Below, piece by piece: positions 2,089-59,627 of a DNA stretch of 64,000 nt. The position numbers were made by a program, and so were the translations under genes. Numbering within the stretch: position 1 is the stretch's first letter; each line of letters begins with the position of its first letter. Origin of the DNA: a phage; NCBI GenBank assembly GCA_025611195.1, contig GCA_025611195.1_4718.2; one strand, given 5' to 3'. Below the pieces are notes generated by a model. The model was not told the origin of the DNA and did no database searches. It was given only the letters and a program-made list of their open reading frames with translations.

Positions 2089-2295
2089 TCAGTCCAACAT
2101 AAGCCATGGCATCGCTTTCGCGATAGAATCCACCGCAGCATTTGCGATCCTTCGTTCAGTCGTTGGTACCACGTGCGCCACGAACCGTTTCCCTTTATTG
2201 CAACCTTTCTTGTGTTTTCCTTTGACTAAACGAACACCAATCATGTCGTTGATAACATGATTTAGTATGTGGCGCTGTAGAGAATTAATCATCAC
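2089..2295 (-). CDS. hypothetical small protein (68 aa)
   Basis: ORF track only; short. Confidence 0.3.
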   Translation of the reverse strand: MMINSLQRHILNHVINDMIGVRLVKGKHKKGCNKGKRFVAHVVPTTERRIANAAVDSIAKAMPWLMLD

Positions 2296-2461
2296 TTTTA
2301 CTCCAGGCAGAGAAGATTCTCGGTTTTAGTTCTATCTGTCCGCAAATCCAGGTGTATCGCCATTTACCTTTACGAGGACCTTTCTTATTTTTAACGCCTA
2401 TCAGAATACGATAGGGGTATGACCAAGCCATTCTAAACTCCTAAAATAAATCTCGATATTC

Positions 2462-2788
2462 TTAATGCAATTGCTTCTTAAAACCTAATTTAAGAAGCGT
2501 CATTCTCTTGTCGATGGTATCCAAGGCTTCCAGCAAGGATTTACGCTGCTCCTTTGTAAGCATATCGACGCGTAGACGTTCGTTAATTTCTGCTTTAAGC
2601 TGTATAGGAAGGGTTTGTGTAAGTATGCTATCAGCCTCCATCTCGTAACTATTTTTCGGTATGGGTAATGCTTCAGTAACACCAGTGAGATAAAAACCGA
2701 TAGTGGTTACTCGCTCATCCATTGCTTCTAACAGTTCAGAACTTACTTCATCCACGATAGTTCTCCGTATTAGGGTGGGCGTACCCAC
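2462..2788 (-). CDS. hypothetical protein (108 aa)
   Basis: ORF track; acidic protein. Confidence 0.45.
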   Translation of the reverse strand: MGTPTLIRRTIVDEVSSELLEAMDERVTTIGFYLTGVTEALPIPKNSYEMEADSILTQTLPIQLKAEINERLRVDMLTKEQRKSLLEALDTIDKRMTLLKLGFKKQLH

Positions 2789-2802
2789 CCCCAGTTGTTA
2801 AT

Positions 2803-3822
2803 TTACACCGCCACCTTAGCCTTGATAGCCGGATGTGATTGATATCCGACGAACACAAAGTCTTCGTAACGGTAATCCGTAATACTTTCCGGTTTACGTA
2901 CGATTGTTAGCTTCGGTAATGGATACGGCTCACGGCTGAGCTGCTCTTTAACCTGTTCGAAGTGGTTGTGATAGATGTGGCAATCTCCACCCGTCCACAC
3001 GAACTCACCAACGTCCATATTCAGCTGTTGGGCAAGCATATGCGTCAGCAACGAATATGATGCGATGTTGAACGGTTTCCCGAGCACTGCGTCGCACGAA
3101 CGCTGGTAAAGCTGACAGGATAAGGCACGTGTTGGTACGTTATGCGCATTCAACCAAAGTTCTGTTTCACTGTGTCGTACATCATCCGTAACCCACTGGG
3201 TTCTTAATACGTCATTGCGTTGAACATAACCAACGCGTTCATCGATGGTGAGCTCGTGGGTATAGAACTGATAAAATGAATGGCACGGAGCGAGATGCAT
3301 ATCGTCTAAATCACCTACGTTCCACGCGCTAACGATGATCCGTCGAGAATCGGGGTCTTCTTTAAGCTGGCGCATCACGTTTGCAATCTGATCGTGATGT
3401 CTAACATACACGAGGTGTTTTAGCATACCGTCATTAAGAATGCCGCAATACTCATAGCCGCGTTGCATCAACTCACGAGTACGTTCTGTATCGTGCGGAA
3501 CAACCACTTTGTAGTCGATCCATTCCCGCCATTGTTTGCCGTAAATCGGTCCTAGATTCCCTTCTTCGTCAGCCCACTCATTCCAAATACGAACACCGTT
3601 ATCTTGAAGATAAGCAACGTTTGTGTCGCCGTTAAGAAACCAGAGCAGTTCGTGGATAACGCTCTTAAGGTGAATCTTCTTGGTGGTTACCAGCGGGAAC
3701 CCTTTCTTCAAGTCAAAACGCATCTGACGTCCGAATACAGAACGGGTCCCGGTGCCTGTACGATCGGCTTTATCACGGCCGTTATCCATGATGTCTTGCA
3801 AAAGGTCCAAATACTGTTTCAT
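2803..3822 (-). CDS. thyA: thymidylate synthase (ThyA family) with two insertions relative to E. coli ThyA
   Basis: Translation has the ThyA signature: [53 protein letters not shown], catalytic [22 protein letters not shown]; ATG at 3822. Confidence 0.9.
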
Positions 3823-4178
3823 TTTAATCCTCTAAGTGTTTCAAGTAGTTCCTGAAATTTGTAACGATATTTAGAATCACTTAACGTGTAACAGCAACCA
3901 CGTAACACGTTATGCGCGTAATCAGCTTGTAAACCACGAACCTTCGGATCCAGTGATAGATTCAATGACGCGTCATCAAAAATCCACGCTTCAATGTTCT
4001 TCTTAGATTCCTTCGTTAACATCGTTTTCACCTCGTAGTAAAAGTAAATAGAGTTTTGTCGAGACGCCCTAATTACATACAACGTAGGTTCTCCTGGCTT
4101 CAGAGAATTCTTAAAATCCGTTAGTTTTGATGGACAGGATAAGACAGCATAAAAGCCTCCCATTACGGGAGGCTTCAT
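3819..4178 (-). CDS. hypothetical protein (119 aa)
   Basis: ORF track; stop overlaps thyA start (ATGA at 3819-3822). Confidence 0.5.
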
Positions 4179-4186
4179 TAATCAGC

Positions 4187-4735
4187 TTATTTCACAAGAA
4201 CAGCGAATTCGAGAACGTAAATAGCTTCATCGTCCATCGGATTTGTTGTGGTATAGCCAACGAAGCAATAACCCATATCCACGATAAACTCGCTAAGTTT
4301 ATCGATGACTGATGCCTCGATGCGATCATCAACAGACAGACGACATTTACGGGTTATGTTTTGCCCGCGAGGAACACCAGCCAACACGGATAGAAAATGT
4401 ACGATCCGATTATTGGTTGTGAACTGCACGTAATCATCGTAGTGCTTAAGGTCTTTCATCGCAGACTCTACCGTCATCCGGCGACCAGGTGATACATACT
4501 CAGAATAAGAATAAGCTGCAATCGTGCGGCGGTCTTCAGTGAGGTAAGTATTCCCTTCGGGATGATAGCTCTCGATTGTTCCGTCTTCATAGGCGACGGT
4601 TACAACAGGTGCGCCGTACTCGTCGCGACCGAAATCAATCTTACATTTATTCGAAAGCGGTAGAACTGTACAAGGCTTTGCATTGTTCTCATCGGGGAGA
4701 TCGTAACCACTCATCATTTTCAAGAACATAGACAT
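4187..4735 (-). CDS. hypothetical protein, paralog of 4822..5355
   Basis: Shares M..NNAKP.T..F.RD..G.P...G..P.GN.Y..D..TIA.Y.YS pattern with the adjacent gene. Confidence 0.55.
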   Translation of the reverse strand: MSMFLKMMSGYDLPDENNAKPCTVLPLSNKCKIDFGRDEYGAPVVTVAYEDGTIESYHPEGNTYLTEDRRTIAAYSYSEYVSPGRRMTVESAMKDLKHYDDYVQFTTNNRIVHFLSVLAGVPRGQNITRKCRLSVDDRIEASVIDKLSEFIVDMGYCFVGYTTTNPMDDEAIYVLEFAVLVK

Positions 4736-4787
4736 AATAGAACCTCATGATAATAGATAATAGAAATGATAGATAGTACAACAAATT

Positions 4788-4811
4788 GAGGGGGTATTAT
4801 CCCACCCCCTC
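4788..4811 (-). terminator. GC-rich hairpin (GAGGGGG / CCCCCTC) after gene 4822..5355
   Basis: 7-bp inverted repeat with 10-nt loop just downstream of the minus-strand stop. Confidence 0.5.
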
Positions 4812-4821
4812 GCAGGGATTA

Positions 4822-5355
4822 CTACTTAACGATCGCGATGATTTTGCCGCTCGCACCGGCGTAATATGCTGTTAATTCACCAGTAAACAACTCTTGTAAA
4901 AGACGATTTACGTGACTAACAAAGTTAGGATTGTCTGATTTTACAAACTCGATATTGCGCGTTTGTTTTATATCACGATCGATTAAACGGATTTCCAACA
5001 ACGCACAAATAAGGCGATCGTCGAGTTCACCACTCGCATCCAGCACTTCCCCATACTTCGTAGCACGGACGTCCGCATACATACGGTCAACATCATCCTT
5101 CCCAAAACCACAGGAATAGGCATACGTTGCGATGGTGTTACCATTGTCCATCACATAAACGTTACCACCTGGGTAATCGATAAATCGTTGATCCTTATCA
5201 CCATGAGCGACGAACTCCAGTGTCGGTCTACCCATCGAATCACGGTTGAATTCAATTGTGGTCAAGCGATCTGGTACCACATGCAACGTAAATGGTTTCG
5301 CATTGTTACGATCGCTAGTATCGCAGTTGCCCATTACTTTTACAATAACACTCAT
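4822..5355 (-). CDS. hypothetical protein, paralog of 4187..4735
   Basis: Tandem paralogy visible in translation (see 4187..4735). Confidence 0.55.
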   Translation of the reverse strand: MSVIVKVMGNCDTSDRNNAKPFTLHVVPDRLTTIEFNRDSMGRPTLEFVAHGDKDQRFIDYPGGNVYVMDNGNTIATYAYSCGFGKDDVDRMYADVRATKYGEVLDASGELDDRLICALLEIRLIDRDIKQTRNIEFVKSDNPNFVSHVNRLLQELFTGELTAYYAGASGKIIAIVK

Positions 5356-5429
5356 GTTTTATTCCTTAGTAGTCCTAGTAGTAGTATTGAGGAATAGCAC
5401 CTCATTAGATAGTCTATTTTGGTAATGAT

Positions 5430-5729
5430 TTACTGAAACAGGACATTAAACTCGACGAGATACCCATCGGATCTATCACCACGATATCTGTTGCAGAAAA
5501 CACCGAATTTCATCAAGAACTCACATAACTCTTCGGCTTTGTATAACGGAATACGATTTTCGTCGAGCAGAGGACACATATGGCTAACCAGCTCCGACGA
5601 ATCAACGCAACACAAATAAAGAAGGAACCGAACAATAGCTCGGTTCTTAGTGAAGCTCTCGAATTCACCTGCGGTTCTGAACTCATCGAGGAGCTTTGTC
5701 GTTTTCTTCAATCGTTCACGATCAAGCAT
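5430..5729 (-). CDS. hypothetical protein (99 aa)
   Basis: ORF track; ATG at 5729. Confidence 0.45.
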   Translation of the reverse strand: MLDRERLKKTTKLLDEFRTAGEFESFTKNRAIVRFLLYLCCVDSSELVSHMCPLLDENRIPLYKAEELCEFLMKFGVFCNRYRGDRSDGYLVEFNVLFQ

Positions 5730-5751
5730 GTTAACCTCAATACGAACATAA

Positions 5752-5783
5752 CCCTCCTCCGACCCATCAGGGAAGGAGGAGGG
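5752..5783 (-). terminator. CCCTCCTCC / GGAGGAGGG hairpin between minus genes
   Basis: 9-bp inverted repeat 5752-5760 / 5775-5783 just downstream of the stop at 5793. Confidence 0.5.
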
Positions 5784-5792
5784 AATATGCTG

Positions 5793-6107
5793 TTATTTTG
5801 TTTTAGGTGTTGAACCGTTCTTCTTGAAGTCGGATTCGTATTTCACGTTAGAATCGAGAACCTCACGAACGGTTTTATCCGTACAGCCACGAGCGATGTA
5901 TGCATTAAGATCATCACGTAATTTACGCATTGTTGTTTTATCCGCATCAGAAATATCTGACTTGGTAAGACGGAATGCAATTGCGTCACGGATTTTATTC
6001 AGCGTCGCTGGGTTAATACGCTGTTCTGCAAATACCGCTTTGATGAACTTATCGCTATCTTTCGAAGCGACGGCAGCATCAAGAATCTCAATATGCTTTT
6101 CAGACAT
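5793..6107 (-). CDS. hypothetical protein (104 aa)
   Basis: ORF track; basic/acidic mixed small protein. Confidence 0.45.
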   Translation of the reverse strand: MSEKHIEILDAAVASKDSDKFIKAVFAEQRINPATLNKIRDAIAFRLTKSDISDADKTTMRKLRDDLNAYIARGCTDKTVREVLDSNVKYESDFKKNGSTPKTK

Positions 6108-6163
6108 CTTCTTTCCTTTAATAAACGATCATCGTCATATTCATTGCGCAGGGTACTATCACT

Positions 6164-7387
6164 TCAGTAGCTTAGACATCCCGTGCTACGCGCCAACGCA
6201 ACGTCATATGCATCCATGATCGCATCACCGATAGCGGTATGACGAATCAACGGAATACCCATGTCTGGATACTCTTTGGTACCTAAGATGGATACCGGTT
6301 TGTCTTGATACGCGGCAATCATCGAACGGATATCCTGAACCTGGTTATAACGACAAACTGGCTTAAAGCCTGCTTTACGGAACCAATGTTCTAATTGAGG
6401 CCAATCTGTTTCACCGCGAGCAAGATAATAGAAGGTATCCTTACCGTAGTATTCGGTCATCTCATCACGGATATTGTTAACAAATGCATTTACTGTAGCA
6501 ATGGCTTCTTTATAGTCCATCACTCCGACATGCTGAAAACAATAGTCGCGCGCTTCCTTCGGTGCTTTGGTTTGCCACCATTCTACCGTGGACTTACTAA
6601 TATCACCGCCATCAGCGATTTGACCGTAAACGTCAGGGAAGATATCTATACGTGGACCGTTAATAACAGATTCTGGATTAGCTAGATCAAAGAACAAGAT
6701 GCCGATTTCCAGCAGTACCCCGTTCTTTTCCAGACTGAGATTCTCCACATCCAGGCAAAACGCAGGTTTCTCTACCGCTGAAAAATCAAAATATTCTTCG
6801 AGGCGCGGCGTTGGTTCGGCGGCGAAAAACGTCTCATGAATGAACTGGGCGAATGTCTTATTCTCTGCTACTAAGTCAATACCCAATTTACTTAGCAGAG
6901 GTATAATTGCACGGTCGTTGTACTCCATTACCACCAACTCTTGGCTTTTGATAGAACGACCAATTGAGTAAAAAAGATGAACGATATCTAACGGTTTGTA
7001 CGGAGCCTCAAAAGTTGTTCCCTGGAACGACTCAGCCAGCGCCTTATGCGTTTCTTCACGATGATTCATCAGTTGGAAAATAGCACAGCGCAGATAATGC
7101 CGTAATGTTATCTCGTGAAGGTGTGATGTATCTTCCTGAAATAACGTCATGAAACCGTGATATGTATAATACTCGCCTCTTTGAATTTCTTCGAGGAGTT
7201 CTTTGTCCCCATTTATTTCCTCTGGTGTTATCGGTTCGATTTGATCATGGATAATATTGAGCAGGTCACTGCCGTGTACCTTAAACAGTTTTTCAACGCT
7301 AAAATCGGGTAATGTCGCAATTGCTGCGTACATTAATGTTTCTGCGGGATTAAGTTCTTTATTGTCAATTGTGATGGTTAAAGCCAT
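6164..7387 (-). CDS. putative DEDDh (DnaQ-like) 3'-5' exonuclease domain protein
   Basis: C-terminal part has FCLDVENLSL (D.E) and HTAIGDAIMDAYDV (H.A..DA) motifs; start moved to ATG at 7387 (MALTITID) with GAGGT RBS. Confidence 0.55.
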   Translation of the reverse strand: MALTITIDNKELNPAETLMYAAIATLPDFSVEKLFKVHGSDLLNIIHDQIEPITPEEINGDKELLEEIQRGEYYTYHGFMTLFQEDTSHLHEITLRHYLRCAIFQLMNHREETHKALAESFQGTTFEAPYKPLDIVHLFYSIGRSIKSQELVVMEYNDRAIIPLLSKLGIDLVAENKTFAQFIHETFFAAEPTPRLEEYFDFSAVEKPAFCLDVENLSLEKNGVLLEIGILFFDLANPESVINGPRIDIFPDVYGQIADGGDISKSTVEWWQTKAPKEARDYCFQHVGVMDYKEAIATVNAFVNNIRDEMTEYYGKDTFYYLARGETDWPQLEHWFRKAGFKPVCRYNQVQDIRSMIAAYQDKPVSILGTKEYPDMGIPLIRHTAIGDAIMDAYDVALARSTGCLSY

Positions 7388-7412
7388 TTTATTATACCTC
7401 ATCGAAATCAAA

Positions 7413-7754
7413 TTAGTTAAATTCAGGTTTATCAGCAGCCAGACCAAGTCCAGCCAGTATTACGTAATCATACCAAGCTTTTACTTTTGCTTTCGCTTCA
7501 TCTAAACTATCTGCGTTGATGTGCGGAAACTCATCGTTGACTGGGAAAGGTAAATCGCAGTCGTAGCTTGTATAGTCTTTCCAACCTTTCCATTCGATAG
7601 TTAGAGAACCAAAAACGGTCTCAGCAACAACGTGGTTATAGCGACATTCTTCACATGGCGTACGCTCTTCCGACCAAACAAGCTCGTGCTGTGCTAAAAG
7701 TTGTTGTACGACCGATAATGGTTGCTCTTCATTAAGTTCGATACTGTCTATCAC
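7413..7754 (-). CDS. hypothetical protein (113 aa)
   Basis: ORF track. Confidence 0.45.
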   Translation of the reverse strand: MIDSIELNEEQPLSVVQQLLAQHELVWSEERTPCEECRYNHVVAETVFGSLTIEWKGWKDYTSYDCDLPFPVNDEFPHINADSLDEAKAKVKAWYDYVILAGLGLAADKPEFN

Positions 7755-8347
7755 TGTATACCCTCCTTTTCCTTATCGTAATTACTACACATATTGACAA
7801 ACGCAGTATTATCAGACAGCATGCTAACCATCTGACGGATTGCGTCCAACGGTTCAAGTTTAGGATTGATTGATTCACCGGTCAACGCGCTTATTGCTCG
7901 TGTGATCTCAGCCAAATCAACGTTCGGGTCTTTATCATCAATGATGAGCAGACTCTTCGCCGGTTTCTGACGACGTTTGATGATTAACAAATACGTGACA
8001 AGGTTCTCACGCCAAGCGTCAGAATCCAGATTGCGTATCAGGGTTAACGCACGACGTTCTTCCGCCCATGATGGTTTCTCACGGATAACGGGCATGTAAG
8101 ATAATTGCTCAGCAAGCCCTTTCAAACTGACACGGTTGGTGCCACCAGGATGCTCACTAATCCGCAACATCTCGGTTAACAGACGGACATATGCGGTTGT
8201 TGTAGAAACACCCCGCAGCGGCAGGAACAAATTATGTCCCGGAACCCCATCATGACTCAGCGGTGCGATATACGCCATGAATTGACGGATATCGTCATCG
8301 GTCTGTTCTCCAGCAACGAACTTAAACGCTTCACGTAGAACGCTCAC
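7751..8347 (-). CDS. hypothetical protein (198 aa)
   Basis: ORF track; 4-nt overlap with downstream gene. Confidence 0.5.
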   Translation of the reverse strand: MSVLREAFKFVAGEQTDDDIRQFMAYIAPLSHDGVPGHNLFLPLRGVSTTTAYVRLLTEMLRISEHPGGTNRVSLKGLAEQLSYMPVIREKPSWAEERRALTLIRNLDSDAWRENLVTYLLIIKRRQKPAKSLLIIDDKDPNVDLAEITRAISALTGESINPKLEPLDAIRQMVSMLSDNTAFVNMCSNYDKEKEGIQ

Positions 8348-8633
8348 TACGAAGTCTCCTTAATGTTTCTTTTATATGCAATCTCTTCGGCAAGTACAGA
8401 CGTTTGTACAGATCAACTAACAGATAACGCATAACGGAAGCAACCACCAGGTATTCGCCTTCAGCTTCCGAATAGCGTATCATGTTAATCGGGTAATTCA
8501 AATAAGAATAAGAAAAGAGATCATCATTGGTGAGGCGATGATCTTCAAGATACTGACGAAACAATTCTGCTAAGGCATCGTACTCCATTCCGTAGTAACA
8601 CAACGATACCTGTCTTACCGACAGTCGTTTCAT
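8331..8633 (-). CDS. hypothetical protein (100 aa)
   Basis: ORF track. Confidence 0.4.
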   Translation of the reverse strand: MKRLSVRQVSLCYYGMEYDALAELFRQYLEDHRLTNDDLFSYSYLNYPINMIRYSEAEGEYLVVASVMRYLLVDLYKRLYLPKRLHIKETLRRLRSERST

Positions 8634-9472
8634 GCTGAGTTACCTTTTAGTTTTCCGCGTATCATGTCAACAACGCGTGAGGGATCAGAAATAACATTAG
8701 CGATAAGATGATCGATAGGTAGGTCGAGAACGATTTTCTTCAGCTGGAAAGTCGTATCTTTACGACGCACGCCGTAGAACACACCATCTTTAAACACAAC
8801 CTCGTACGAAATTGGTAGCTGACTGATAATCGTGTTAGCGTAATCACCCAACCACATCGACCCCGCCATCAAATGCGCACAAACCGCATGACTAATACGC
8901 ACATCTTTGTTCTTCTGGCTAACGTCTTTGATTTTCGACATGGTGACCAGAAGTTCACCGATCTTACTGAGCATATCGTCGTATACCCCAAAGAACTTAA
9001 TCAGTTGTCGGGCACCTAACGATATATATGTTTCTCGCGGTAAGACACAACACACCTGCGGTAACGTCCCAACCCCATAGACACAACTGTGGGGTGACAA
9101 TGGGAGCAAATCAGCAACCGCGTTCTTGATGTTGTTATACTCAACGATATCGTTGAACGGCGAAAGCCCTTTCGTAATCGGTTTATCAATCGCCACATCA
9201 AACTCCGCGAACGTCCATGCTGCTTTACGGGGTTCCCCTTTCTTGTACGGTGGGGCCAGTATCGCAACAACACGAAGTCGATACTCATGTGTATCGCGTA
9301 GCTTAAGTTGGATACCATCATCATCGCCTTCACGCACAAGTGAGTAGCGGCTCGCGCAACCATCACAGACCACCGTTGGTTCGTGTTGACCGTATGCTGC
9401 AAGCATCGGTTTACTAAGATCTTTATCACAGTGTTTACAATGATGATCCTGTTCCTGATAACTGATTTTCAC
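8630..9472 (-). CDS. hypothetical protein with N-terminal Cys-rich (zinc-ribbon-like) segment
   Basis: N-terminus HHCKHCDK...VVCDGCASRY suggests CxxC..CxxC metal binding. Confidence 0.5.
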   Translation of the reverse strand: MKISYQEQDHHCKHCDKDLSKPMLAAYGQHEPTVVCDGCASRYSLVREGDDDGIQLKLRDTHEYRLRVVAILAPPYKKGEPRKAAWTFAEFDVAIDKPITKGLSPFNDIVEYNNIKNAVADLLPLSPHSCVYGVGTLPQVCCVLPRETYISLGARQLIKFFGVYDDMLSKIGELLVTMSKIKDVSQKNKDVRISHAVCAHLMAGSMWLGDYANTIISQLPISYEVVFKDGVFYGVRRKDTTFQLKKIVLDLPIDHLIANVISDPSRVVDMIRGKLKGNSA

Positions 9473-9487
9473 ATCAGGGCTCCTTTG

Positions 9488-10444
9488 TTAATGTAATACG
9501 CGATCTACTGGAATTGTCGACGCGTTGCTGGCGGACAGATTCGTTGCTTTACGATCAGGACTGAATCGACGAGCGTTCTCTTCATGGTAGTTAACCGGGT
9601 TATCCTGTTTCAGCAATTCTATTGCTTCATCAAACGCTAATTCCCTATAACCCTTTGGATATAGGAACAGGGGTTCGTCAATATCCAACCCTTTAACAAA
9701 CTCATGCGACAACCAAACGCTACCATCAGCACTGTAAAGAACAGGCTCAACATCATAATCCAAAACGTATTGATACCAGTAATTAAACAGTTGGGCGATC
9801 CATCGATTACGTAATAAATAATCGATTACAACCGCACTACGCACGCTATGGCACCAGCCGATCTTACCGTCAACTCTCTGCAACAACGTACCGTCATTTG
9901 CTTGGTGGATGACAGCATTAAATAACCAGGCAAGATCGGTTGCGAAAAGTGCCGCTTCTTGAATATCGCTAATGTAGCGCACAGGTATCGTCAGATGAGT
10001 GCGGTAATGCGCCATCGCTTCTTCGTAGTTGTCTCCTTCGATACAGAGAATACCATTTGACGACAGATGCCCCTGATTCAATGACTGACTGATATAAAGA
10101 TCAGCGATCGCGTTAATATGTTCGACGGTACCCAAGGTTAATTCAGACATAAAACGATCAACGTCAACGGACATCGATGTACCGGAAATGAACGGATTGG
10201 CTGGGCGAGCCGTATTAGAGAAAATAATCGACCAGATCGCTTCGTGTTTTTCATCCGATGGGACAAACGAAATATGGCGTTCTGCACTATTAGCATCAAC
10301 AGATACTTCTACTGTTTTCAAGCAGCTAGTACAAACATAACACGTGTTCGGCAACGGCATATCCGAAAACATATCGTAACGAATTGTCGCAATTGAAATA
10401 TCATGTCCGCAGTGAGGGCATGTGGTATCAATAAGTGTTCTCAT
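9488..10444 (-). CDS. hypothetical protein with N-terminal zinc-ribbon-like motif
   Basis: TCPHCGH ... CYVCTSC at N-terminus. Confidence 0.5.
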   Translation of the reverse strand: MRTLIDTTCPHCGHDISIATIRYDMFSDMPLPNTCYVCTSCLKTVEVSVDANSAERHISFVPSDEKHEAIWSIIFSNTARPANPFISGTSMSVDVDRFMSELTLGTVEHINAIADLYISQSLNQGHLSSNGILCIEGDNYEEAMAHYRTHLTIPVRYISDIQEAALFATDLAWLFNAVIHQANDGTLLQRVDGKIGWCHSVRSAVVIDYLLRNRWIAQLFNYWYQYVLDYDVEPVLYSADGSVWLSHEFVKGLDIDEPLFLYPKGYRELAFDEAIELLKQDNPVNYHEENARRFSPDRKATNLSASNASTIPVDRVLH

Positions 10445-10710
10445 TGTTGAATTCCTTTTGATAAGAATAACTGTATATCGGTAAACTGTTCTTTAGGAAC
10501 ATCGTCGGCAGCCGTTAGAACCTCAGGACCGTGTTCGTTGAGGTAAGCTTCTCGTTGAAGATGATAAAGTCGATTGGCTTCTTGGAACTCAGTGTCCGTC
10601 ATGTAAACCAACTTAAACTTCGAACGTTTATTCGGATTATATCTCTTATTACGTTTCTTTGGTTTCTTCGCCATAATAGCCTCGTGAAGGTGGATGGTAC
10701 ACCCATCCAC
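10441..10710 (-). CDS. hypothetical small basic protein (89 aa)
   Basis: ORF track; 4-nt overlap with downstream gene. Confidence 0.4.
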   Translation of the reverse strand: MDGCTIHLHEAIMAKKPKKRNKRYNPNKRSKFKLVYMTDTEFQEANRLYHLQREAYLNEHGPEVLTAADDVPKEQFTDIQLFLSKGIQQ

Positions 10711-10721
10711 CTTCCTCCATG

Positions 10722-11243
10722 TTAAAGTGCGTTCATTTCTTCAGGTGTGCGTACAGTGCGCGTGTTGGGATCGACCATTGCTGGTACGCCCGCAGGACAT
10801 TTACGGACATCAATCCGCATCTCAGGCTCGATCGGACGAACGCGATACGTTTTACCGTCGTCGGTTAACACCGAAATGGTCAACGCTTGGTTCAATTCAT
10901 TAACGAAGTTCACCAAACGCTGCTGCCCGCCTGCCGACCAGAAGTTGAGATCGGTTTCTCCGCTGAAATAACTGATTCCTTCGGCGGTCCCAATCGTGAT
11001 TTTAACGATGCCCGGATAGTCACGAAGAAGGGGTGCCTGATAACCTTCATCTTCCGTATCCAATTTTACCCACGCGCCTCCCGTAGACAAGCAGTTAACT
11101 TCCAAGGCGGTTGGCGCACTGACTTCTGCCGATGACCAGGTATACATCGTGCCTAGTTTAGCGTGTCCGGTTTCCAGCTCGCTGTAATCCCAAGCGTGTG
11201 CTGATGCCGTAATAAAGAGGGCTGCAAGAAACAACTTTTTCAT
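10722..11243 (-). CDS. putative secreted/periplasmic protein with Sec-type signal peptide
   Basis: N-terminus MKKLFLAALFITASAHA-WDY (n-h-c regions, AHA cleavage site); ATG at 11243 with AGGAAT RBS. Confidence 0.55.
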   Translation of the reverse strand: MKKLFLAALFITASAHAWDYSELETGHAKLGTMYTWSSAEVSAPTALEVNCLSTGGAWVKLDTEDEGYQAPLLRDYPGIVKITIGTAEGISYFSGETDLNFWSAGGQQRLVNFVNELNQALTISVLTDDGKTYRVRPIEPEMRIDVRKCPAGVPAMVDPNTRTVRTPEEMNAL

Positions 11244-11298
11244 TCTTTTCGATTCCTATTAAAAGTGACCGATTTCTGTGGTCAGGATTGCTAATACA

Positions 11299-11760
11299 TT
11301 AAATCTGGTTTTGTTTCCGTATTGCACGGTTACGTTTACGTTCTTGGTCTTTGACAGTACCAAGAAACTTCCTTAATTCTGACGGTTCGAGCGTACCCTC
11401 ACGTACCACGCCGTTTTGTTCGATATGGTACGACCAATAACCAACTTCAGCTGTTAAAGATAACGTTGTTGGTTGCGCATCAGGCAACGATCGGGGTGAG
11501 AAAATAAAGAGTAATTCAAAAGGCGTTTCTCGGCTGATGGTGGGACGGATACTAACGTCAAGCCCCTCCCATCGCTGCGGCTTAAATATTCCTCCGGCGG
11601 CGACGATTGTCTCCGAGCGTTGGTCTACAAGCTCAGCTAATTCACGATCGTCATTGAAATAAATATCGTGAAGGATATCTGTGTCGATAAAAAACCCGCG
11701 CTCCAAATCGTGACGAACAATTGAATTCTTCATTCTAACGCCTTTGTTGTTTGTTTTCAT
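11299..11760 (-). CDS. hypothetical protein (153 aa)
   Basis: ORF track. Confidence 0.45.
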   Translation of the reverse strand: MKTNNKGVRMKNSIVRHDLERGFFIDTDILHDIYFNDDRELAELVDQRSETIVAAGGIFKPQRWEGLDVSIRPTISRETPFELLFIFSPRSLPDAQPTTLSLTAEVGYWSYHIEQNGVVREGTLEPSELRKFLGTVKDQERKRNRAIRKQNQI

Positions 11761-11807
11761 GTCCTATACGAACACGAAAAACCGTTAATTTTTACCTTGA
11801 TTGCGTG

Positions 11808-12095
11808 TTAAAATTCCACACCGCGACCGGTCATCGACGAAGGAACCGTGCGATAATAGAAGTAGATGTAATGGTCACGATGGCTAAAATAGTTTTTGCA
11901 AGCATAGAACTCTCCAGATCCAATGAATGATTTAATACGTGTAACTTGAGGGTGTCGTTCGATTAGCGCTCGTAGGACGATTTCCATTTGGTGTGCGCTC
12001 AAGCCTGGTCGAGCTGCGACATGATAATGAAGCTCCTTAAGAAATCGTTTCCAGGGTTCGGGTTGTGTCGACGATCGAGACATCGTTATCTCCAT
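11808..12095 (-). CDS. hypothetical protein (95 aa)
   Basis: ORF track. Confidence 0.4.
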   Translation of the reverse strand: MEITMSRSSTQPEPWKRFLKELHYHVAARPGLSAHQMEIVLRALIERHPQVTRIKSFIGSGEFYACKNYFSHRDHYIYFYYRTVPSSMTGRGVEF

Positions 12096-12121
12096 AGCAG
12101 GTACCGGTAACGCGGCATAAA

Positions 12122-12139
12122 CCCTCCCCGAAGGGAGGG
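12122..12139 (-). terminator. CCCTCCC-CGAA-GGGAGGG hairpin
   Basis: 7-bp perfect stem, 4-nt loop, immediately downstream of the stop at 12150. Confidence 0.5.
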
Positions 12140-12149
12140 CGGTTAATGA

Positions 12150-12707
12150 TTACTCCATCCATACTTCTTCGTCGTAATGATTTTCTATCGCATTACGCCA
12201 AAAACGTACGGTGTCCAAACTAATCGGTGCGTAAAAATGTTGGTCAACGCCTACATTAAGTCCGTTGGCCTTCGCTAACATACAGCGATGAATATGCCCG
12301 AATAGATTGAAGTAGCCCGGGTTTCTTTCGCTGGGTTTATGGCATAGCCAGTAGGATTCGTCATTGCTAATCGGCAATACCAACGGATGTTCATAAACAG
12401 CAGCAAACCCCATACCGAGCAGTTTATCACGCCACGCGTCGAAGCTTAATCCTGTCGCTTTGTATGCGTCTTCGTCCCAATTCCCCATTACCAATTGAAC
12501 CTGGATATCAGAACGAATGGCTTCCACGAACTCGAACTTACCCCAATCACCTAAATGCCACAACACACTGTTCTTTGGAAGATTGTTGATGGCTTTCAGC
12601 ATATGTTGGTTCATATCGGCGACGCTTGCGAACGGACGGCGTGAATACGTCCATGTACGCTCGCTATCGAAATGGGTATCCGATGTAAAGAAGATGGGTG
12701 GGGTCAT
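12150..12707 (-). CDS. calcineurin-like metallophosphoesterase
   Basis: SDTHF, GDWG, GNWD and GHIH motifs in order. Confidence 0.65.
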   Translation of the reverse strand: MTPPIFFTSDTHFDSERTWTYSRRPFASVADMNQHMLKAINNLPKNSVLWHLGDWGKFEFVEAIRSDIQVQLVMGNWDEDAYKATGLSFDAWRDKLLGMGFAAVYEHPLVLPISNDESYWLCHKPSERNPGYFNLFGHIHRCMLAKANGLNVGVDQHFYAPISLDTVRFWRNAIENHYDEEVWME

Positions 12708-13186
12708 TGATCTAATTGCTCCAGAAATGCGCGACCCGATTTACTTGCTTTTAAATGCTGTTCTGCGGAAGTAAGCAGAAGATCGGTTGGTGTGAATGCA
12801 GCGCTACCTTTCCACGCCGTTTTCAGTTTACCCTTTTCGATACTGAACTGAATCAGTTGTTGGGTACCGAAGTTAAGCGTGTTCGTCGCGGCGCTAAATA
12901 CACCACCCATCATGCTGTAACCAAAGACTTTCACATTTTCCGTGTAGAAGTCATTGTCGATCAATTTGTTCTGGAGCTCGAGTTGATCGGACGGCAGCAA
13001 TCCCCCATCAAAGACACTTAAAATACCAGCCAGGCGATACATACTCACCTTCCCTGCAACGCCCACCACGTAATTGCCATACACGGTTTCTTCCAGTTTA
13101 GCAACAACGGTGCGATCGTCGGAGGTTTTCATCGAAACCTCAATACCATCACCAACTTCTGTCAACGTTAAATCAACGATACTCAT
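12704..13186 (-). CDS. hypothetical protein (160 aa)
   Basis: ORF track; ATGA overlap with 12150..12707. Confidence 0.45.
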   Translation of the reverse strand: MSIVDLTLTEVGDGIEVSMKTSDDRTVVAKLEETVYGNYVVGVAGKVSMYRLAGILSVFDGGLLPSDQLELQNKLIDNDFYTENVKVFGYSMMGGVFSAATNTLNFGTQQLIQFSIEKGKLKTAWKGSAAFTPTDLLLTSAEQHLKASKSGRAFLEQLDQ

Positions 13187-13208
13187 TCATCATTCTCCGC
13201 TTTCATGT

Positions 13209-13895
13209 TTAACACATGATTTCACCATGTTTCTTTTCAACATACGTATAAACATCATCCAAATAAGCAATGAGTTTATCCCGATTTGCACAAAGCGATT
13301 TAATCACCGCAATCTCTTTCATATAAAGCTGCTGACCTAACGCCGGATAAGTAATCCAAGCATAGCCGTCAGGCGCAAATTTAGAAATAAGATAATCGGC
13401 GGTTTCCTGTAGTGCGAACTCTTTACTCATCTGACCGTAACGATGTTCGATTGCACGGATACCAAAACGTTCGCTATCCAGACGACCCATATCCGCCAAA
13501 CGAAGCACCTGAGAAGCAACCGAGCTACGTGGACCGGAGTATGAGGCGCGGTGTTCAGCAATAAGTACACGTATCTCCTCGATGTCTTCTGGTGTGAAAA
13601 TATGTTGCTCGTTACGAAGCAGGATAACCGATGCACGAATACCTCCGATAAGGTGGTGGTACGTTCTGTTTTCGTGGCATGCAATATCATGCATAAAAGC
13701 GGCAGTTAATAGACGACGACGTTCCGTGGGTCTGATGATGCCAACCACATCGGCAAGTTCATTTGCCAATTCGACAACAGCAAGCACGTGTTCTTCTTGA
13801 TGAGCAAGATCATTTTTACGAATATTATCAATTACTTCAGTGCGTGTTTCCTGAGATAAGAAATTTAGACAATCCAACGAATATAAAGATTTCAT
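13209..13895 (-). CDS. putative HD-domain phosphohydrolase
   Basis: H..H ... FMHDI motif pattern; ATG at 13895 with AAGAGGT RBS; TATATTAC promoter motif upstream. Confidence 0.5.
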   Translation of the reverse strand: MKSLYSLDCLNFLSQETRTEVIDNIRKNDLAHQEEHVLAVVELANELADVVGIIRPTERRRLLTAAFMHDIACHENRTYHHLIGGIRASVILLRNEQHIFTPEDIEEIRVLIAEHRASYSGPRSSVASQVLRLADMGRLDSERFGIRAIEHRYGQMSKEFALQETADYLISKFAPDGYAWITYPALGQQLYMKEIAVIKSLCANRDKLIAYLDDVYTYVEKKHGEIMC

Positions 13896-13943
13896 CGCAC
13901 GTACCTCTTTGAATCGGTAGATAGATTAATAGATATTGATTAC

Positions 13944-13968
13944 TCACGTAAGTAATATAGCCGTGAAA
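13944..13968 (-). promoter_or_regulatory. candidate phage early promoter (minus-strand TTTCACGGCTATATTACTTACGTGA)
   Basis: One of four near-identical 25-nt motifs with invariant TATATTAC, 50-70 nt upstream of the minus-strand ATG at 13895. Confidence 0.5.
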
Positions 13969-14048
13969 GGATTTGTGTTGGTCCGTTTCGATGCCCATCG
14001 TATTTTATGGATTGTCGAATGACGTCATTTTTAAGGGACATCCCCGAC

Positions 14049-14077
14049 CTCCTCCCCACACCTTTCCTGGGGAGGAG
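14049..14077 (+). terminator. 10-bp hairpin (CTCCTCCCCA / TGGGGAGGAG) followed by TTTTAT, in the 5' leader of the helicase gene
   Basis: Perfect inverted repeat with 9-nt loop then T-run on plus strand; no plus-strand gene upstream. Confidence 0.4.
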
Positions 14078-14111
14078 TTTTATCATACTTTCTATTAATT
14101 CGAGCGCGATT

Positions 14112-16193
14112 ATGTTGGATAGAATCAATCGTTTAATGAACCGAATGACGGTTAAAAATCAGAGTAACAATACCGTGCATATCGGGGGTATCGATGCGTG
14201 GCGTCTTTCAGATGACATTCAGCGTATATGGGGTACCTCCCGATTTATGAAACACATGTTTCGTAATTTCTCTTCTAGTGGACTCAGTCTCCACAACTTT
14301 TACCTTCCCGATTTCGTTTATATTCTCGAAACGATCATCGAAGCAAAGAATACCCGTAGTAACAAACGCATGCTGAAACACCTTATCGAGATACTACTGC
14401 AGGAAACATGGTTGCAAAATACCACCATCGAGCAGCCTGCAATCCTCGATAAAGCACGCATGAACAAAATGCTAACGCTCTCTTTGTTCGATTATCAAGA
14501 TGAGTTCATCGACATCTATAACCGTAATGTACCTAAGTATCGACTGAAAGGATACGTGTGTGCGATGGGTGCTGGTGCTGGTAAAACGATCACAGCATTG
14601 GCATTAAGCGCCGCAATGAACGTCGATGTATTTGTGGTCTGCTGCCCTAAGAACACCATGCGTTCAGCATGGCAATCCGATGTAAACAAAGCCATCGTTG
14701 ATCCTGCAACAGAAACCGCGTTCTGGTCGGATACAATGCCACCATCACAGCTGCAGAAAAGCGATAAATACTATTTTTTACATTACGAATCGATGGGCTT
14801 ATTAAACGATGTGATGATCAAGCATAAACGCACAGCGAAGCGCGTTCTTATTGTTGTTGACGAAAGCCATAACTTCAACGACAAGAACAGCCAACGTTCC
14901 CAGCGACTGGTTGATCTTGTACAGACAATGCGTCAAACCATGAATGCGGATGTGCACGTCTTGTTTATGTCGGGTACGCCTGTTAAACAGATGGGTTCTG
15001 AGATGATCCCATGTTTAGGTTGTATCGATCCGATGTTCCAAGGACAGGTGGTCGATAGCTTCAAAGCAATTTACGGTTTAACCAGCAGCCGTGCTAACGA
15101 TATCCTCAGACATCGTCTTGGGTTCATGATGCATGTCGTACCTAAAGAGGCTTACCGTAAAACCCGTCCGGAAGTTCAGGACGTTTACGTGAAGCTCCCT
15201 AACGGTAGCGATTATACCATCTCGAGCATTCGTGACGACATGGCGATATTTGTACGCGATCGGGCGAAGTATTACAAGGATAACTGGGGACATTACCGAA
15301 AGATTTTTGATGATGCCTTGGACTACTATCGTAAGACTATTCGTACCGACGGAGAACGTAAAGAGCTATCTCGATACGAATCGATTGTTGCGCGTTTCCA
15401 GAAAGGTTACGATCCCGTCAGAGACAAAGAAGATGCGATGTTCTGCAACGCGTTTGAAAAACGTTCCATCATGCCAGTTCTTCCTTCTGATTTAAGGGTT
15501 GCTTTCAAAGACGCCAAGAGCGTCATCAAGTACGTTGGGTTGAAAATTCAGGGTGAAGCGTTGGCGCGTGTTCTGGGCGCAGCGCGCATTCGGTGTCATG
15601 TCGACATGGTGGAATACATCGACTTCGAAGAGTACATCAATAACGCCGAAGCCAAAGTGTTGATCTTCACATCGTACGTTCAGGTGGTTGAACGCGTCGA
15701 TAACATGCTTCGTGATGCGGGCTTCTTACCGGAACCCATTTACGGGAAGACCAACAAAAACATCAACCAAATACTTGCCCGTCTACGCGACGATCCTGAC
15801 AGCGGTCCCGCTATCGCAACATTTGATAGCTTAGCTGAAGGGGTTCCGATGCTGATGTGTAATGTGGGTCTTTTCCTGAACAACCCGTGGCGCTCATCCG
15901 ATGAAATCCAAGCCATCAGCCGTCTCGATCGTGTAGGGCAAACGCAACCTGTTCGGATTTATCGTTTCATGTTAGATACAGGAAGCGAAGGTAACGTTTC
16001 TACACGTAGCCACGAAATCATGGAGTTAAGTCGGCAGCTTGTTGAAGAAATCACGGGCGTCAAATACGTGGTGAACAAGCAAGATGATGTTAACTTGCAG
16101 GAAACGTTAGCGATGGAAGGATACGATCAATACGTTACCGTAAACACCTCGGAATACGATATTAAACCACGACCTGCGTTCTTGGAATGGTAA
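14112..16193 (+). CDS. SF2 helicase / SNF2-like ATPase
   Basis: Walker A GAGAGKT, DESH (motif II), SGTP (motif III), C-terminal helicase domain; start set to first ATG after the leader hairpin (ORF track 14007 is probably too long). Confidence 0.65.
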   Translation: MLDRINRLMNRMTVKNQSNNTVHIGGIDAWRLSDDIQRIWGTSRFMKHMFRNFSSSGLSLHNFYLPDFVYILETIIEAKNTRSNKRMLKHLIEILLQETWLQNTTIEQPAILDKARMNKMLTLSLFDYQDEFIDIYNRNVPKYRLKGYVCAMGAGAGKTITALALSAAMNVDVFVVCCPKNTMRSAWQSDVNKAIVDPATETAFWSDTMPPSQLQKSDKYYFLHYESMGLLNDVMIKHKRTAKRVLIVVDESHNFNDKNSQRSQRLVDLVQTMRQTMNADVHVLFMSGTPVKQMGSEMIPCLGCIDPMFQGQVVDSFKAIYGLTSSRANDILRHRLGFMMHVVPKEAYRKTRPEVQDVYVKLPNGSDYTISSIRDDMAIFVRDRAKYYKDNWGHYRKIFDDALDYYRKTIRTDGERKELSRYESIVARFQKGYDPVRDKEDAMFCNAFEKRSIMPVLPSDLRVAFKDAKSVIKYVGLKIQGEALARVLGAARIRCHVDMVEYIDFEEYINNAEAKVLIFTSYVQVVERVDNMLRDAGFLPEPIYGKTNKNINQILARLRDDPDSGPAIATFDSLAEGVPMLMCNVGLFLNNPWRSSDEIQAISRLDRVGQTQPVRIYRFMLDTGSEGNVSTRSHEIMELSRQLVEEITGVKYVVNKQDDVNLQETLAMEGYDQYVTVNTSEYDIKPRPAFLEW

Positions 16194-16198
16194 TTAAG

Positions 16199-16227
16199 AA
16201 GCTCTGCCTGATGTCAGGCAGAGCTTT
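16199..16227 (+). terminator. rho-independent terminator after helicase gene
   Basis: AAGCTCTGCCTGA-TG-TCAGGCAGAGCTTT: about 12-bp stem followed by T-run, 6 nt after the stop. Confidence 0.6.
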
Positions 16228-17762: not shown

Positions 17763-17795
17763 CTTCCTCCCTACCCATAACGGGCGGGGAGGAAG
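17763..17795. terminator. bidirectional hairpin (CTTCCTCCC / GGGAGGAAG) between convergent genes
   Basis: 9-bp inverted repeat between the plus-gene stop (17744) and minus-gene stop (17813). Confidence 0.55.
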
Positions 17796-27318: not shown

Positions 27319-27347
27319 CCCTCCCACAGCGTAAAGCGTAGGGAGGG
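27319..27347. terminator. CCCTCCC / GGGAGGG hairpin between convergent genes
   Basis: 7-bp stem with 15-nt loop between plus stop 27313 and minus stop 27379. Confidence 0.55.
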
Positions 27348-31976: not shown

Positions 31977-32001
31977 TCATAGAGGTAATATAAGCGTGAA
32001 T
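31977..32001 (-). promoter_or_regulatory. candidate phage early promoter (minus-strand ATTCACGCTTATATTACCTCTATGA)
   Basis: Fourth instance of the TATATTAC-core motif, upstream of the minus gene starting at 31889. Confidence 0.45.
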
Positions 32002-37254: not shown

Positions 37255-37279
37255 TCACTTAAGTAATATAGCCGTGAAA
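37255..37279 (-). promoter_or_regulatory. candidate phage early promoter (minus-strand TTTCACGGCTATATTACTTAAGTGA)
   Basis: Near-identical to the motif at 13944..13968; 90-110 nt upstream of the minus ATG at 37168. Confidence 0.5.
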
Positions 37280-38126: not shown

Positions 38127-38153
38127 ACCCTCCCCGCCTTATGCAGGGAGGGT
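38127..38153 (-). terminator. ACCCTCCC / GGGAGGGT hairpin
   Basis: 8-bp stem, 11-nt loop, downstream of the stop at 38168. Confidence 0.55.
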
Positions 38154-38806: not shown

Positions 38807-38821
38807 TACAGGCGTCCTCCT

Positions 38822-39061
38822 TTAGCAATGGTTGTTAGTTGCTTCTATTTCATCAAGATACGGTTCTACGTCATCGCCCTCCACGAATTCGTTGAACCAA
38901 CAGTCAATGGTAGAAATAACCGGTGACTGGTGTTCACATTTCTTAGATACCTTAAAAGGTACGTTATTATCCATCATACCGAGTTCGGGTCGAAAACGCC
39001 CGAAATGTTTCGCAGTCCAAATGTCTGGGACGATATGGTTGTTCATCGTGGTGTTCAGCAT
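38822..39061 (-). CDS. small ORF immediately 3' of the intron region; possible downstream exon of the beta-prime-like gene
   Basis: ATG at 39061 with GAGGT RBS; MNNHIVP and LGMMDNNVPF weakly resemble the beta-prime segment following the catalytic loop (MAVHVP, LMMSTNNILSP). Confidence 0.35.
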   Translation of the reverse strand: MLNTTMNNHIVPDIWTAKHFGRFRPELGMMDNNVPFKVSKKCEHQSPVISTIDCWFNEFVEGDDVEPYLDEIEATNNHC

Positions 39062-39064
39062 GAG

Positions 39065-39740
39065 TCGCTACCTCATACCCGCAGCTTTACCTGCAGCTTC
39101 CGGTGTTACCGGAATGTCCAGAATACATCTTATCCATATTCCAAATGGAACGTAGGACTTCCGCGCTGGATCTCGCTTGAGACCACGTATTCGTTGAACG
39201 TTCTCCTGAACGGAGCTTCGCTGCTGATCGAACATTGTCGTGTACGGTAGGCATCCCCGAAGGGATTGTCATTGAAGCCGCGTACATCCGCTACCTTGTT
39301 TCTACCTTATCGGTTCCTCTTACGAGGCGTAGCGGCCTTAGCCCTTCCCAGCAATTCACGGAATCCAAGCTCTTCCTTTCGGAAGGCAGGGCCTATGATT
39401 AAGCATCCCCGTCGCTGTTATCGACTATATCTTCATCCTCGTTGCGAGGAGTCTCCCGTTTGGGTCTGTGTTTAACAGAGCCTACTCTACTCAACATCGC
39501 GTCTTTCGATAGTCTGTGAGCACACATCTTAACGAACATTCGTGGATTCCTAAACAGGTGAACGTTCTTGTTGAGATGCTTCGCTGCGGATTATTCCCGT
39601 CCTACCTCTTTTACCGTACCCAGTTCATTACGCTGGCCCTCATCTATGTCACCATGATGAGTTGGTGTGTAGTCCGATTACAGAAACTTCCCGTCAATTA
39701 GAGAGTTTTAACTACGTTCCTGTTACCAGAAACCAGATCC
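39065..39740 (-). ncRNA. group I intron-like element B (approximate boundaries)
   Basis: Minus strand carries Q-like AATCCGCAGCGAAG (39592-39579), R-like GCTCACAGACTATCG (39521-39507) and S-like GAAGATATAGTCG (39433-39423); no long ORF. Confidence 0.5.
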
Positions 39741-39814
39741 CGACGGTATCAATAAATCAACGTAAGTTATTGATTTAATTGAAAAACTGAAATCTGCATT
39801 ATCTAAATCTTCAG

Positions 39815-40185
39815 TATGGTTCGCTACTCCATACCCGTACCTCATGTACTGCTTACGTCTTTCACGTAAGGATAGACTATATCTTTCACCCTCAGCATTA
39901 TCTGGTCGGGGCTCCCATTTCGGCGGTCAGATGACCGGTGGTTTCCCACGCCGCTTGGCCCTAACGCCCGTAAGCGATAGTCGTTGAGCACATCTCCGTT
40001 CTGGAGACTTCGCTGCGGATTCCCCAATCCTTGCCGCTTTTACCGTACCTGAATGATTAGTTCAGCCCCACGCTCTGTTCCCAGGCATGGTTGGTGGACG
40101 AGGCTCTAAGTAGGTTCCCGCATTAGAGAGTTCCTCGTAACAACATTTCTGCGTTACTGGGCCTAACGACCCTTTCAAGATCATC
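39815..40185 (-). ncRNA. group I intron-like element A (approximate boundaries)
   Basis: Minus strand carries P/Q-like GGTAAAAGCGGCAAGG...AATCCGCAGCGAAG (40044-40008), R-like GCTCAACGACTATCG (39987-39975), S-like AAAGATATAGTC (39885-39875) and a P9-like hairpin CTTACG-TGAAAGA-CGTAAG. Confidence 0.55.
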
Positions 40186-43399: not shown

Positions 43400-43463
43400 T
43401 TGGGATTCCTCTTTTCTTAAACTTTATTAAATGACGTCATTGAATCAGCTTCTACTCGCTCAT

Positions 43464-43488
43464 TCACCTAGGTAATATAACCCTGAAA
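43464..43488 (-). promoter_or_regulatory. candidate phage early promoter (minus-strand TTTCAGGGTTATATTACCTAGGTGA)
   Basis: TATATTAC-core motif 65-90 nt upstream of the minus ATG at 43399. Confidence 0.5.
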
Positions 43489-47042: not shown

Positions 47043-47070
47043 AACCGATCCAGCCGAAGCCAGATCGGTT
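47043..47070 (-). terminator. AACCGATC / GATCGGTT hairpin followed by U-tract on minus strand
   Basis: 8-bp stem, 12-nt loop; minus-strand downstream sequence CTTTTTATGCC...CTTCTTTTTT; lies about 195 nt beyond the stop at 47265. Confidence 0.45.
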
Positions 47071-59598: not shown

Positions 59599-59627
59599 CC
59601 TCCTCTGGGAATGGAACCCAGAGGAGG
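59599..59627. terminator. 11-bp hairpin CCTCCTCTGGG-AATGGAA-CCCAGAGGAGG between convergent genes
   Basis: Perfect inverted repeat, 13 nt downstream of the minus stop 59640. Confidence 0.55.

Follow-up and report, generated by a model that had tools for sequence, protein, structure and literature searches.

The window analysed here is a stretch of 64,000 nucleotides of phage DNA; the region shares about 94% identity with Escherichia phage vB_EcoM_Goslar. This jumbo phage of the Chimalliviridae forms a nucleus and is endowed with its own multisubunit RNA polymerases, several subunit genes of which are found in the window. The locus under study is a 216-nt divergent region, separating an HD-domain hydrolase gene on the minus strand from a helicase gene on the plus strand. 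Its features, and those of the flanking genes, are the following:

13209-13895, minus strand: HD-domain hydrolase gene, first gene of a divergent minus-strand operon
13944-13967, minus strand: 24-nt motif TTCACGGCTATATTACTTACGTGA, a candidate promoter of early type (virion RNA polymerase) for the HD-hydrolase operon
14002-14023, plus strand: invariant block ATTTTATGGATTGTCGAATGA, with TATG at 14006-14009; putative late-type (non-virion RNA polymerase) promoter, predicted start at G14009
14009-14111, plus strand: predicted 5' leader of the helicase gene, untranslated and 103 nt long; the hairpin occupies +41..+69
14019-14028, no strand assigned: perfect 10-nt palindrome ATGACGTCAT, at +11..+20 of the predicted leader
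14049-14077, plus strand: leader hairpin, 10-bp stem and 9-nt loop, with arms fitting the phiKZ consensus
14049-14058, plus strand: 5' arm of the hairpin, CTCCTCCCCA
14059-14067, plus strand: hairpin loop, CACCTTTCC (cacctttcc)
14068-14077, plus strand: 3' arm of the hairpin, TGGGGAGGAG
14078-14083, plus strand: T-rich tail TTTTAT (U4AU as RNA), with a T-run of 4 here, of 5 or 6 in close relatives
14112-16193, plus strand: SNF2/SF2 helicase gene, 693 aa, ortholog of Goslar gp160, phiKZ gp203 and 201phi2-1 gp300 (virion-associated helicase)
16199-16226, plus strand: helicase 3' terminator hairpin, 12-bp stem, tail TATGCTGCGT, a typical member of the family described below

The initial annotation had described, on the plus strand, a perfect 10-bp hairpin followed by TTTTAT, located 35 nt before the ATG at 14112 and with no plus-strand gene upstream to be terminated. 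The sequence bears this out: all ten pairs of the stem are perfect (7 G-C and 3 A-T), TTTTATCATAC follows directly on its 3' side, and 35 nt separate its 3' end from the start codon. Every gene from 2285 to 13895 is on the minus strand, so that no plus-strand gene ends near the hairpin. The folding energy of the isolated hairpin is -18.1 kcal/mol; within an 82-nt context, the MFE is -23.7 (z = -2.87), and the hairpin is present in both the MFE and the centroid structures. In 1000 dinucleotide shuffles of the 103-nt leader a perfect 10-bp stem never arose, and in the whole window eight perfect stems of the 10-bp type are found, against 0.87 expected. The leader hairpin is real, and stands far above chance. 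A terminator scan caught just its inner six pairs, because the maximum loop allowed by the scan is 8 nt.

The element resembles a canonical Rho-independent terminator, in that a G+C-rich stem (7 of 10 pairs are G-C) is followed by a U-run (U4AU), although a short one. The minus strand carries the same stem without a T tail (GTCGGGGATG), which gives the element a plus-strand orientation; on the same ground, a bidirectional terminator is rejected.

The position of the hairpin in an untranslated leader depends on the start codon of the helicase gene. A mechanically produced list of open reading frames contains a longer in-frame ORF, 14007-16193 (728 aa), which reads through the hairpin. The Goslar annotation places the helicase start at the ATG equivalent to 14112, and the helicase N-termini (MLDRIN, MLARIN or MLDYI) align among relatives. 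The frame opened by the ATG at 14007 is closed after 8 codons in Goslar, by a 1-nt deletion, and after 9 codons in a diverged relative, L007; because of these early stops, the hairpin is rejected as a coding part of the 728-aa ORF. Substitutions located 3' of the hairpin are non-synonymous in the 728-aa frame, which also speaks against a coding reading. By comparison with relatives, 14112 is the true start codon. Indels in the window leave the frame 14007-14111 open into the helicase, in what looks like a false N-terminal extension. A copy of the gene in a Shigella flexneri assembly (P0123; L028 701-2902), annotated with 733 aa, is apparently over-extended likewise; annotators should be warned that indels can create false extensions of this kind through the hairpin (728 aa here, 733 aa in Shigella). 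Sequestration of a Shine-Dalgarno sequence by the hairpin is unlikely: the GGAGG of the 3' arm is 36 nt away from the ATG, the same composition is found in every terminator of the phage, and an AUC or AUA start after GGAGG is unsupported by conservation.

Similar hairpins are found throughout the window. When elements were counted, composed of a perfect stem of at least 7 pairs, at least 4 of them G/C, with TTAT or YTATG within 8 nt, 15 were found, against 0.97 in shuffles. Many intergenic hairpins of the window have C-rich 5' arms and G-rich 3' arms (CCCTCCC / GGGAGGG, CCTCCTCC / GGAGGAGG); the immediate tails of the family hairpins are TTATG, TTTATG, CTATG or TTATC, and nearly all members lie 3' of same-strand genes or between convergent genes. 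Mapping of RNA 3' ends in phiKZ has yielded a terminator consensus, 5'-BCCYCCCCHWWDGGGRRGGBYTTATKYYGT-3' (Putzeys et al. 2024, PMC10914365), and the same type of motif is known as motif A in 201phi2-1 (PMC11512511). Both phages belong to the same virus family as the present one, and likewise have their own RNA polymerases; in all of them the motif combines C-rich and G-rich arms with a TTAT soon after the stem, and occurs in many copies per genome.

Compared with this consensus, the leader hairpin has both arms, CCYCCCC and GGGRRGG (CCTCCCC at 14051-57, GGGGAGG at 14069-75), and is one of the 8 elements of the window matching a regular expression for the arms; TTAT begins within about 2 nt of the stem (TTTTAT in the window, TTTTTAT in Goslar). 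It differs in its stem of 10 bp, in the C which follows TTAT, in place of K (G/T), without any YYGT (tail TTATCATAC, i.e. TATC), and in its loop of 9 nt, not of about 4 as indicated by HWWD. Loops in the family range from 4 to 15 nt, so the short-loop rule is looser in this phage. A TATG tail, mostly TTATGYYG, is found in 12 of the 15 gene-end members of the family in the window. A further difference concerns placement, since the hairpin is found in a 5' leader, and not 3' of a gene; its termination activity is predicted from sequence. With these differences, the leader hairpin is, by its composition and tail, an ordinary member of the phiKZ-type (chimallivirus) terminator-hairpin family. It had been treated in the initial annotation as an isolated feature; it turns out to be one copy of a genome-wide family, and the Goslar GenBank record reports a "putative transcriptional terminator, -14.80" at the orthologous site, upstream of gp160 (putative helicase). 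The feature itself is therefore not new to databases.

Leader placement is recurrent in this phage, as leader hairpins are found at several Goslar divergent junctions: terminator-like hairpins in plus-strand leaders precede gp13 (an annotated terminator), gp23, gp211 and gp232. The tails of the Goslar plus-strand leader hairpins are TTAT(C/T) or T-rich (L020 9956-10069; junctions before gp23, gp30, gp211 and gp232). In the gp23 and gp30 leaders a stable hairpin is located right after TATG. None of the five leader hairpins, that of the helicase and those of gp13, gp23, gp211 and gp232, features TATG in its tail, versus 12 of the 15 gene-end members (Fisher p = 0.004, post hoc); this is only suggestive, and compatible with leader copies being weaker or non-restarting terminators.

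Two other arrangements were observed among members of the family. In cases such as 5752-5783 (minus), 12122-12139 (minus), 16199-16226 (plus), 38127-38153 (minus) and 47043-47070 (minus), a gene-end hairpin directly precedes TATG; the next start codon is often just 18-21 nt further on, with no other TATG in the gap. Such a gene-end hairpin, together with its TATG, may constitute a coupled module of terminator and restart promoter. Hairpins at 17763-17795, 27319-27347 and 59599-59627, between convergent genes, have TATG-type tails on both strands, and are apparent bidirectional terminators.

Upstream of the hairpin, comparison with diverged relatives reveals a conserved block. The helicase is 62% identical to that of the window in L006, and 58-61% in L007 and L009, and the arrangement of a minus-strand HD gene and a plus-strand helicase gene is kept. 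The intergenic alignment of these relatives features two invariant blocks only, the early motif and ATTTTATGG..TGTCGAATGA (14002-14023); the latter is unchanged in the window, Goslar, L006, L007 and L009, while its flanks diverge, and occurs once in the window. It lies 40 nt 5' of the hairpin on the same strand. In phiKZ, the non-virion RNA polymerase initiates at the G of the late promoter T-3 A T G+1 (PMC4666361), every position of TATG being required (PMC4666361, PMC12809450). Since the block is invariant upstream of diverged helicases, and contains a phiKZ-type TATG, transcription is predicted to start at G14009, a placement based on a 4-nt motif plus conservation. ATTTTATG is found 5' of the helicase orthologs in 201phi2-1 and L013 too; a variant TATG motif precedes the orthologs in L012 and FLC9 and, less clearly, in phiKZ and RAY. 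That the orthologs are virion proteins points to a middle or late gene. No conserved TATG or other promoter-like motif is found between the hairpin and the ATG in the alignment of relatives; the placement of the hairpin inside the helicase leader, as proposed in the initial annotation, is thus upheld by the TATG block 40 nt upstream and by the lack of such a motif downstream.

Other roles were considered for the block and for the hairpin in promoter function. The block does not belong to the minus-strand early promoter, as other copies of the early motif lack it. The hairpin is rejected as a required part of a TATG promoter, since no hairpin precedes TATG in phiKZ P119L, the best-studied late promoter; structural papers on phiKZ-type TATG promoters mention no hairpin. 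Host sigma-70 promoter logic is also rejected, as a scan of the window found fewer promoter-like sites than in shuffles; according to published work, this virus family transcribes independently of the host polymerase.

The palindrome ATGACGTCAT is found in two perfect copies only in the window, at 14019-14028 and 43431-43440, and in three in Goslar. Both copies of the window are located in divergent regions holding the early-type motif, the one at 43431-43440 in the chimallin leader. A dimeric factor may bind to this palindrome.

The other invariant block is the 24-nt motif on the side of the HD-hydrolase gene. In the window the motif, TTCACGGYTATATTACYTANGTGA, is present in four copies, against 0 expected, all on the minus strand:

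13944-13967, minus strand: copy of the 24-nt motif in the HD-hydrolase/helicase divergent region
31977-32000, minus strand: copy of the 24-nt motif
37255-37278, minus strand: copy of the 24-nt motif
43464-43487, minus strand: copy of the 24-nt motif

One of the copies is located upstream of the chimallin homolog (41504-43399). Goslar contains 11 copies, again all on the minus strand; intergenic DNA similar to the motif is found in Erwinia jumbo phages, and TATATTAC-type sequences are present at the equivalent divergent junction of phiKZ and 201phi2-1. Early promoters of jumbo phages have been described as having a conserved, AT-rich block around -10, preceded by a stretch rich in T (PMC7598289, PMC8244752). 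The motif fits this description, and is therefore taken as the putative early promoter of the HD-hydrolase operon and, more generally, as a candidate early promoter consensus of Goslar-like phages. Its firing direction is along the minus strand, away from the hairpin.

The hairpin itself was compared at two levels of divergence. The predicted leader is 103 nt long in the window, Goslar and L006, and 122 nt long in L007. A hairpin is found at a near-constant position in the three lineages, with a stem sequence different in each, and always with a T-rich tail:

Window, +41..+69: stem CTCCTCCCCA, tail UUUUAU
L006, +39..+65: stem GCCCCCT (RNA GCCCCCU), tail CUUUUUC
L007, +47..+79: stem CCTTCGGAC (RNA CCUUCGGAC), extended to 13 pairs, tail UAUUUCUUUAUGCCGU

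The L007 hairpin is significant by itself, being matched in 6 of 1000 shuffles, and was flagged as terminator-like. The L006 hairpin has a perfect stem of 6 bp, equalled by 337 of 1000 shuffles; being weak, it adds little support. By these comparisons a leader hairpin is kept clearly in one diverged lineage (L007/L009), and weakly in a second one (L006). In 201phi2-1 and L013 the orthologs are preceded by the TATG but not by the hairpin, and no such hairpin separates the proximal TATG from the start codon of phiKZ gp203 or of 201phi2-1 gp300. The absence from 201phi2-1 and L013 indicates that the hairpin is not essential for helicase expression in the wider family, and is a feature of the Goslar-like clade. 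Further diverged relatives were sought by the DNA pattern ATTTTATGGNNNTGTCGAATGA, which gave chance matches only among viral and metagenome contigs, and by a helicase protein search of IMG/VR, which returned nothing beyond relatives at the level of Goslar. In L009 (2501-5635, cluster of P0001) the helicase, 1044 aa long, includes a LAGLIDADG intein.

In 15 close relatives the stems are identical. The T-run of the tail consists of 4, 5 or 6 residues, and is followed by ATCATAC or ACCAGAC; in one group the tail is TTTTTACC, so that TTAT itself is not conserved. The 9-nt loop, cacctttcc in the window, is its exact reverse complement, ggaaaggtg (GGAAAGGTG), in Goslar and 13 other close relatives (window compared with L001, L004 and L027-L038). 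Likewise, the loop of the helicase 3' terminator (16211-16214) is either atgt or acat, alternating among relatives, so that flip inversions recur at both terminators flanking the helicase gene. Judging from the aligned loops, these changes are hairpin flip inversions at the DNA level, leaving stem and tail unaffected. Flip inversions of hairpin loops at inverted repeats were reportedly described in plastid non-coding DNA by Kelchner and Wendel in 1996. The present case is alike in that, among close relatives, the stems are identical and the loop is exactly reverse-complemented (CACCTTTCC vs GGAAAGGTG); it differs in that the genome is that of a phage, the two terminators concerned flank a single gene, and no effect on stem or tail is predicted.

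Taken together, the data favour, with a probability of roughly 0.55, the interpretation of the leader hairpin as an intrinsic terminator in the helicase 5' leader, acting as a leaky attenuator. The non-virion RNA polymerase of the phage would start at the G of the conserved TATG (G14009); about 70 nt on, the nascent RNA would fold into the C-rich/G-rich stem of 10 bp, with U4AU behind it; some of the polymerases would then release a leader RNA of 70-76 nt, while the remainder would read through, yielding the helicase mRNA. By this means the hairpin would throttle or gate helicase expression. The hairpin, its membership in the family, its orientation and its position relative to the TATG block and the ATG are observed; the start, termination itself and its partial efficiency are those expected from the comparison with related phages. 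Some points weigh against attenuation: the tail reads TATC, not TATG or TATT, lacks YYGT, and has a T-run of only 4 nt in the window; moreover, TTAT is not kept in one group of close relatives, the L006 hairpin is weak, and the orthologs of 201phi2-1 and L013 have no leader hairpin.

The attenuator reading, already put forward in the initial annotation, finds a precedent in the termination sites mapped in 5'UTRs of phiKZ and 201phi2-1 (PMC10914365, PMC11512511). In phiKZ, such sites yield a short RNA along with a read-through mRNA, and 17 candidate 5'UTR-derived RNAs are listed. Termination at T102, upstream of PHIKZ221, exceeds 90% and generates an RNA of 71 nt; the RNA ending at T131, upstream of PHIKZ302, has 141 nt, and both were confirmed by northern analysis (PMC10914365). 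In 201phi2-1, 5'UTR termination occurs at T055 and T056, just after capsid-gene promoters, and 5'UTR-derived small RNAs are found (PMC11512511). As in these cases, the terminator of the window would lie tens of nt past the promoter and before the coding sequence, and the predicted RNA of 70-76 nt falls in the size class of the premature terminators of phiKZ and 201phi2-1; those, in contrast, were mapped experimentally and concern other genes, while both ends of the window RNA are predicted.

A second term of comparison is offered by bacterial leader attenuators, such as those of the trp and pyrBI leaders. Bacterial intrinsic terminators and attenuators share with the window leader a G+C-rich stem followed by a U-run, and partial termination would be expected here too. 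Unlike in bacterial attenuators, no conserved leader peptide or antiterminator pairing was found in the window leader, transcription is by a phage polymerase and not by that of the host, and the U-run is short and interrupted. The leader does not qualify as a trp-type attenuator: its upstream ATGs have no Shine-Dalgarno sequence, and neither a conserved leader ORF nor an alternative pairing was found.

Other functions may be envisaged for the hairpin. It might act as an insulator, stopping incoming plus-strand transcripts, antisense or read-through, that cross the early minus-strand operon, for instance, with little effect on helicase transcripts started at their own promoter. This fits with its orientation along the plus strand with no plus-strand gene upstream; moreover, about 9% of the terminators mapped in six Pseudomonas phages, a set in which the predicted intrinsic ones are mostly those of phiKZ, lie in antisense orientation relative to genes, and phiKZ is reported to produce antisense RNAs (PMC10914365). 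Yet the only conserved promoter-like block is upstream of the hairpin, so that the transcripts of the helicase gene itself must cross it, and no conserved TATG is found from the hairpin to the ATG. Nor is there an obvious source of incoming plus-strand transcripts, since all 11 early-type motifs of Goslar are on the minus strand. The proposal of the initial annotation, that antisense transcription coming from the divergent promoter might be terminated here, fails on the same account: the motif at 13944-13967 would fire along the minus strand, away from the hairpin. An insulating role is accordingly considered improbable. So is, to a similar degree, a role of the hairpin after transcription and without termination, either protecting the mRNA from 5'-end-dependent decay, or modulating its translation or its export from the phage nucleus. 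The short T-run (4 nt) and the unconserved tail would suit such a role, and stable hairpins are found at or near TATG in other Goslar leaders, e.g. those of gp30 and gp23; the present hairpin, however, is about 40 nt away from the predicted 5' end, and not at the end, it shares its arms and T-rich tail with the 3'-end terminator family of the phage, and, at 35 nt from the start codon, it does not occlude the ribosome-binding region; no alternative pairing with the start region is conserved.

Finally, the palindrome might matter only as DNA, as a cruciform, as an inverted repeat prone to recombination, or as the neutral remnant of a terminator duplication. The loop inversion between the window and its relatives indicates that the palindrome recombines, or undergoes template switching, at the DNA level. 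Such flips, however, are a general by-product of any inverted repeat, and the occurrence at the same leader position in L007/L009 (weakly in L006) of a hairpin of different sequence, whose T-rich tail is always confined to the coding strand, speaks against this reading; a palindrome devoid of any RNA role is very unlikely. Assignment of the hairpin to a known RNA family is also rejected, as it corresponds to no tRNA and to no Rfam entry: searches with Rfam 15 gave no relevant match in 13700-14400 at E <= 1 and, in the whole window, nothing at gathering score.

If the hairpin is indeed a leaky terminator, it provides one well-anchored 5'-leader terminator outside Pseudomonas phages, in a nucleus-forming jumbo phage, and the phiKZ terminator consensus and the TATG promoter rule would extend to the E. 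coli-infecting Goslar lineage. Precise predictions follow: a start at G14009, 3' ends at 14078-14086, and an RNA of about 70-76 nt. No new kind of mechanism is implied, the design being already known from related phages.

A speculative idea, to which we give little credit, is that the pocket of the non-virion RNA polymerase that recognises TATG might also read, on the non-template strand, the TTAT(G) tail of chimallivirus terminators, the length of the T-run setting the extent of read-through. Were this true, termination would result from a hairpin combined with pausing induced by a promoter motif, and not from a long U-run; gene-end terminators with TATG would double as restart promoters of the next gene, and leader hairpins, with TTATC or TTATT at their end and no restart signal, would be attenuators kept leaky by design. 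The hairpin of the helicase leader would then be a tuned variant, with T-runs of 4, 5 and 6 occurring among natural variants.

Two observations fall outside the helicase locus. The window includes an ORF-poor stretch of 1.25 kb (38807-40061, especially 39415-39781 and 39853-40150, both on the minus strand), containing a group I intron-like RNA (RF00028, 46.9 bits, with a gathering score of 50) and a second, weaker match. At the equivalent position Goslar features one intron and a NUMOD1/HNH endonuclease ORF; compared with it, the window is without the endonuclease ORF, of about 1 kb, and has an additional intron-like piece that Goslar lacks. Contigs of Goslar-like phages, 236-240 kb long, are present in assemblies of Salmonella, Shigella and E. 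coli isolates.
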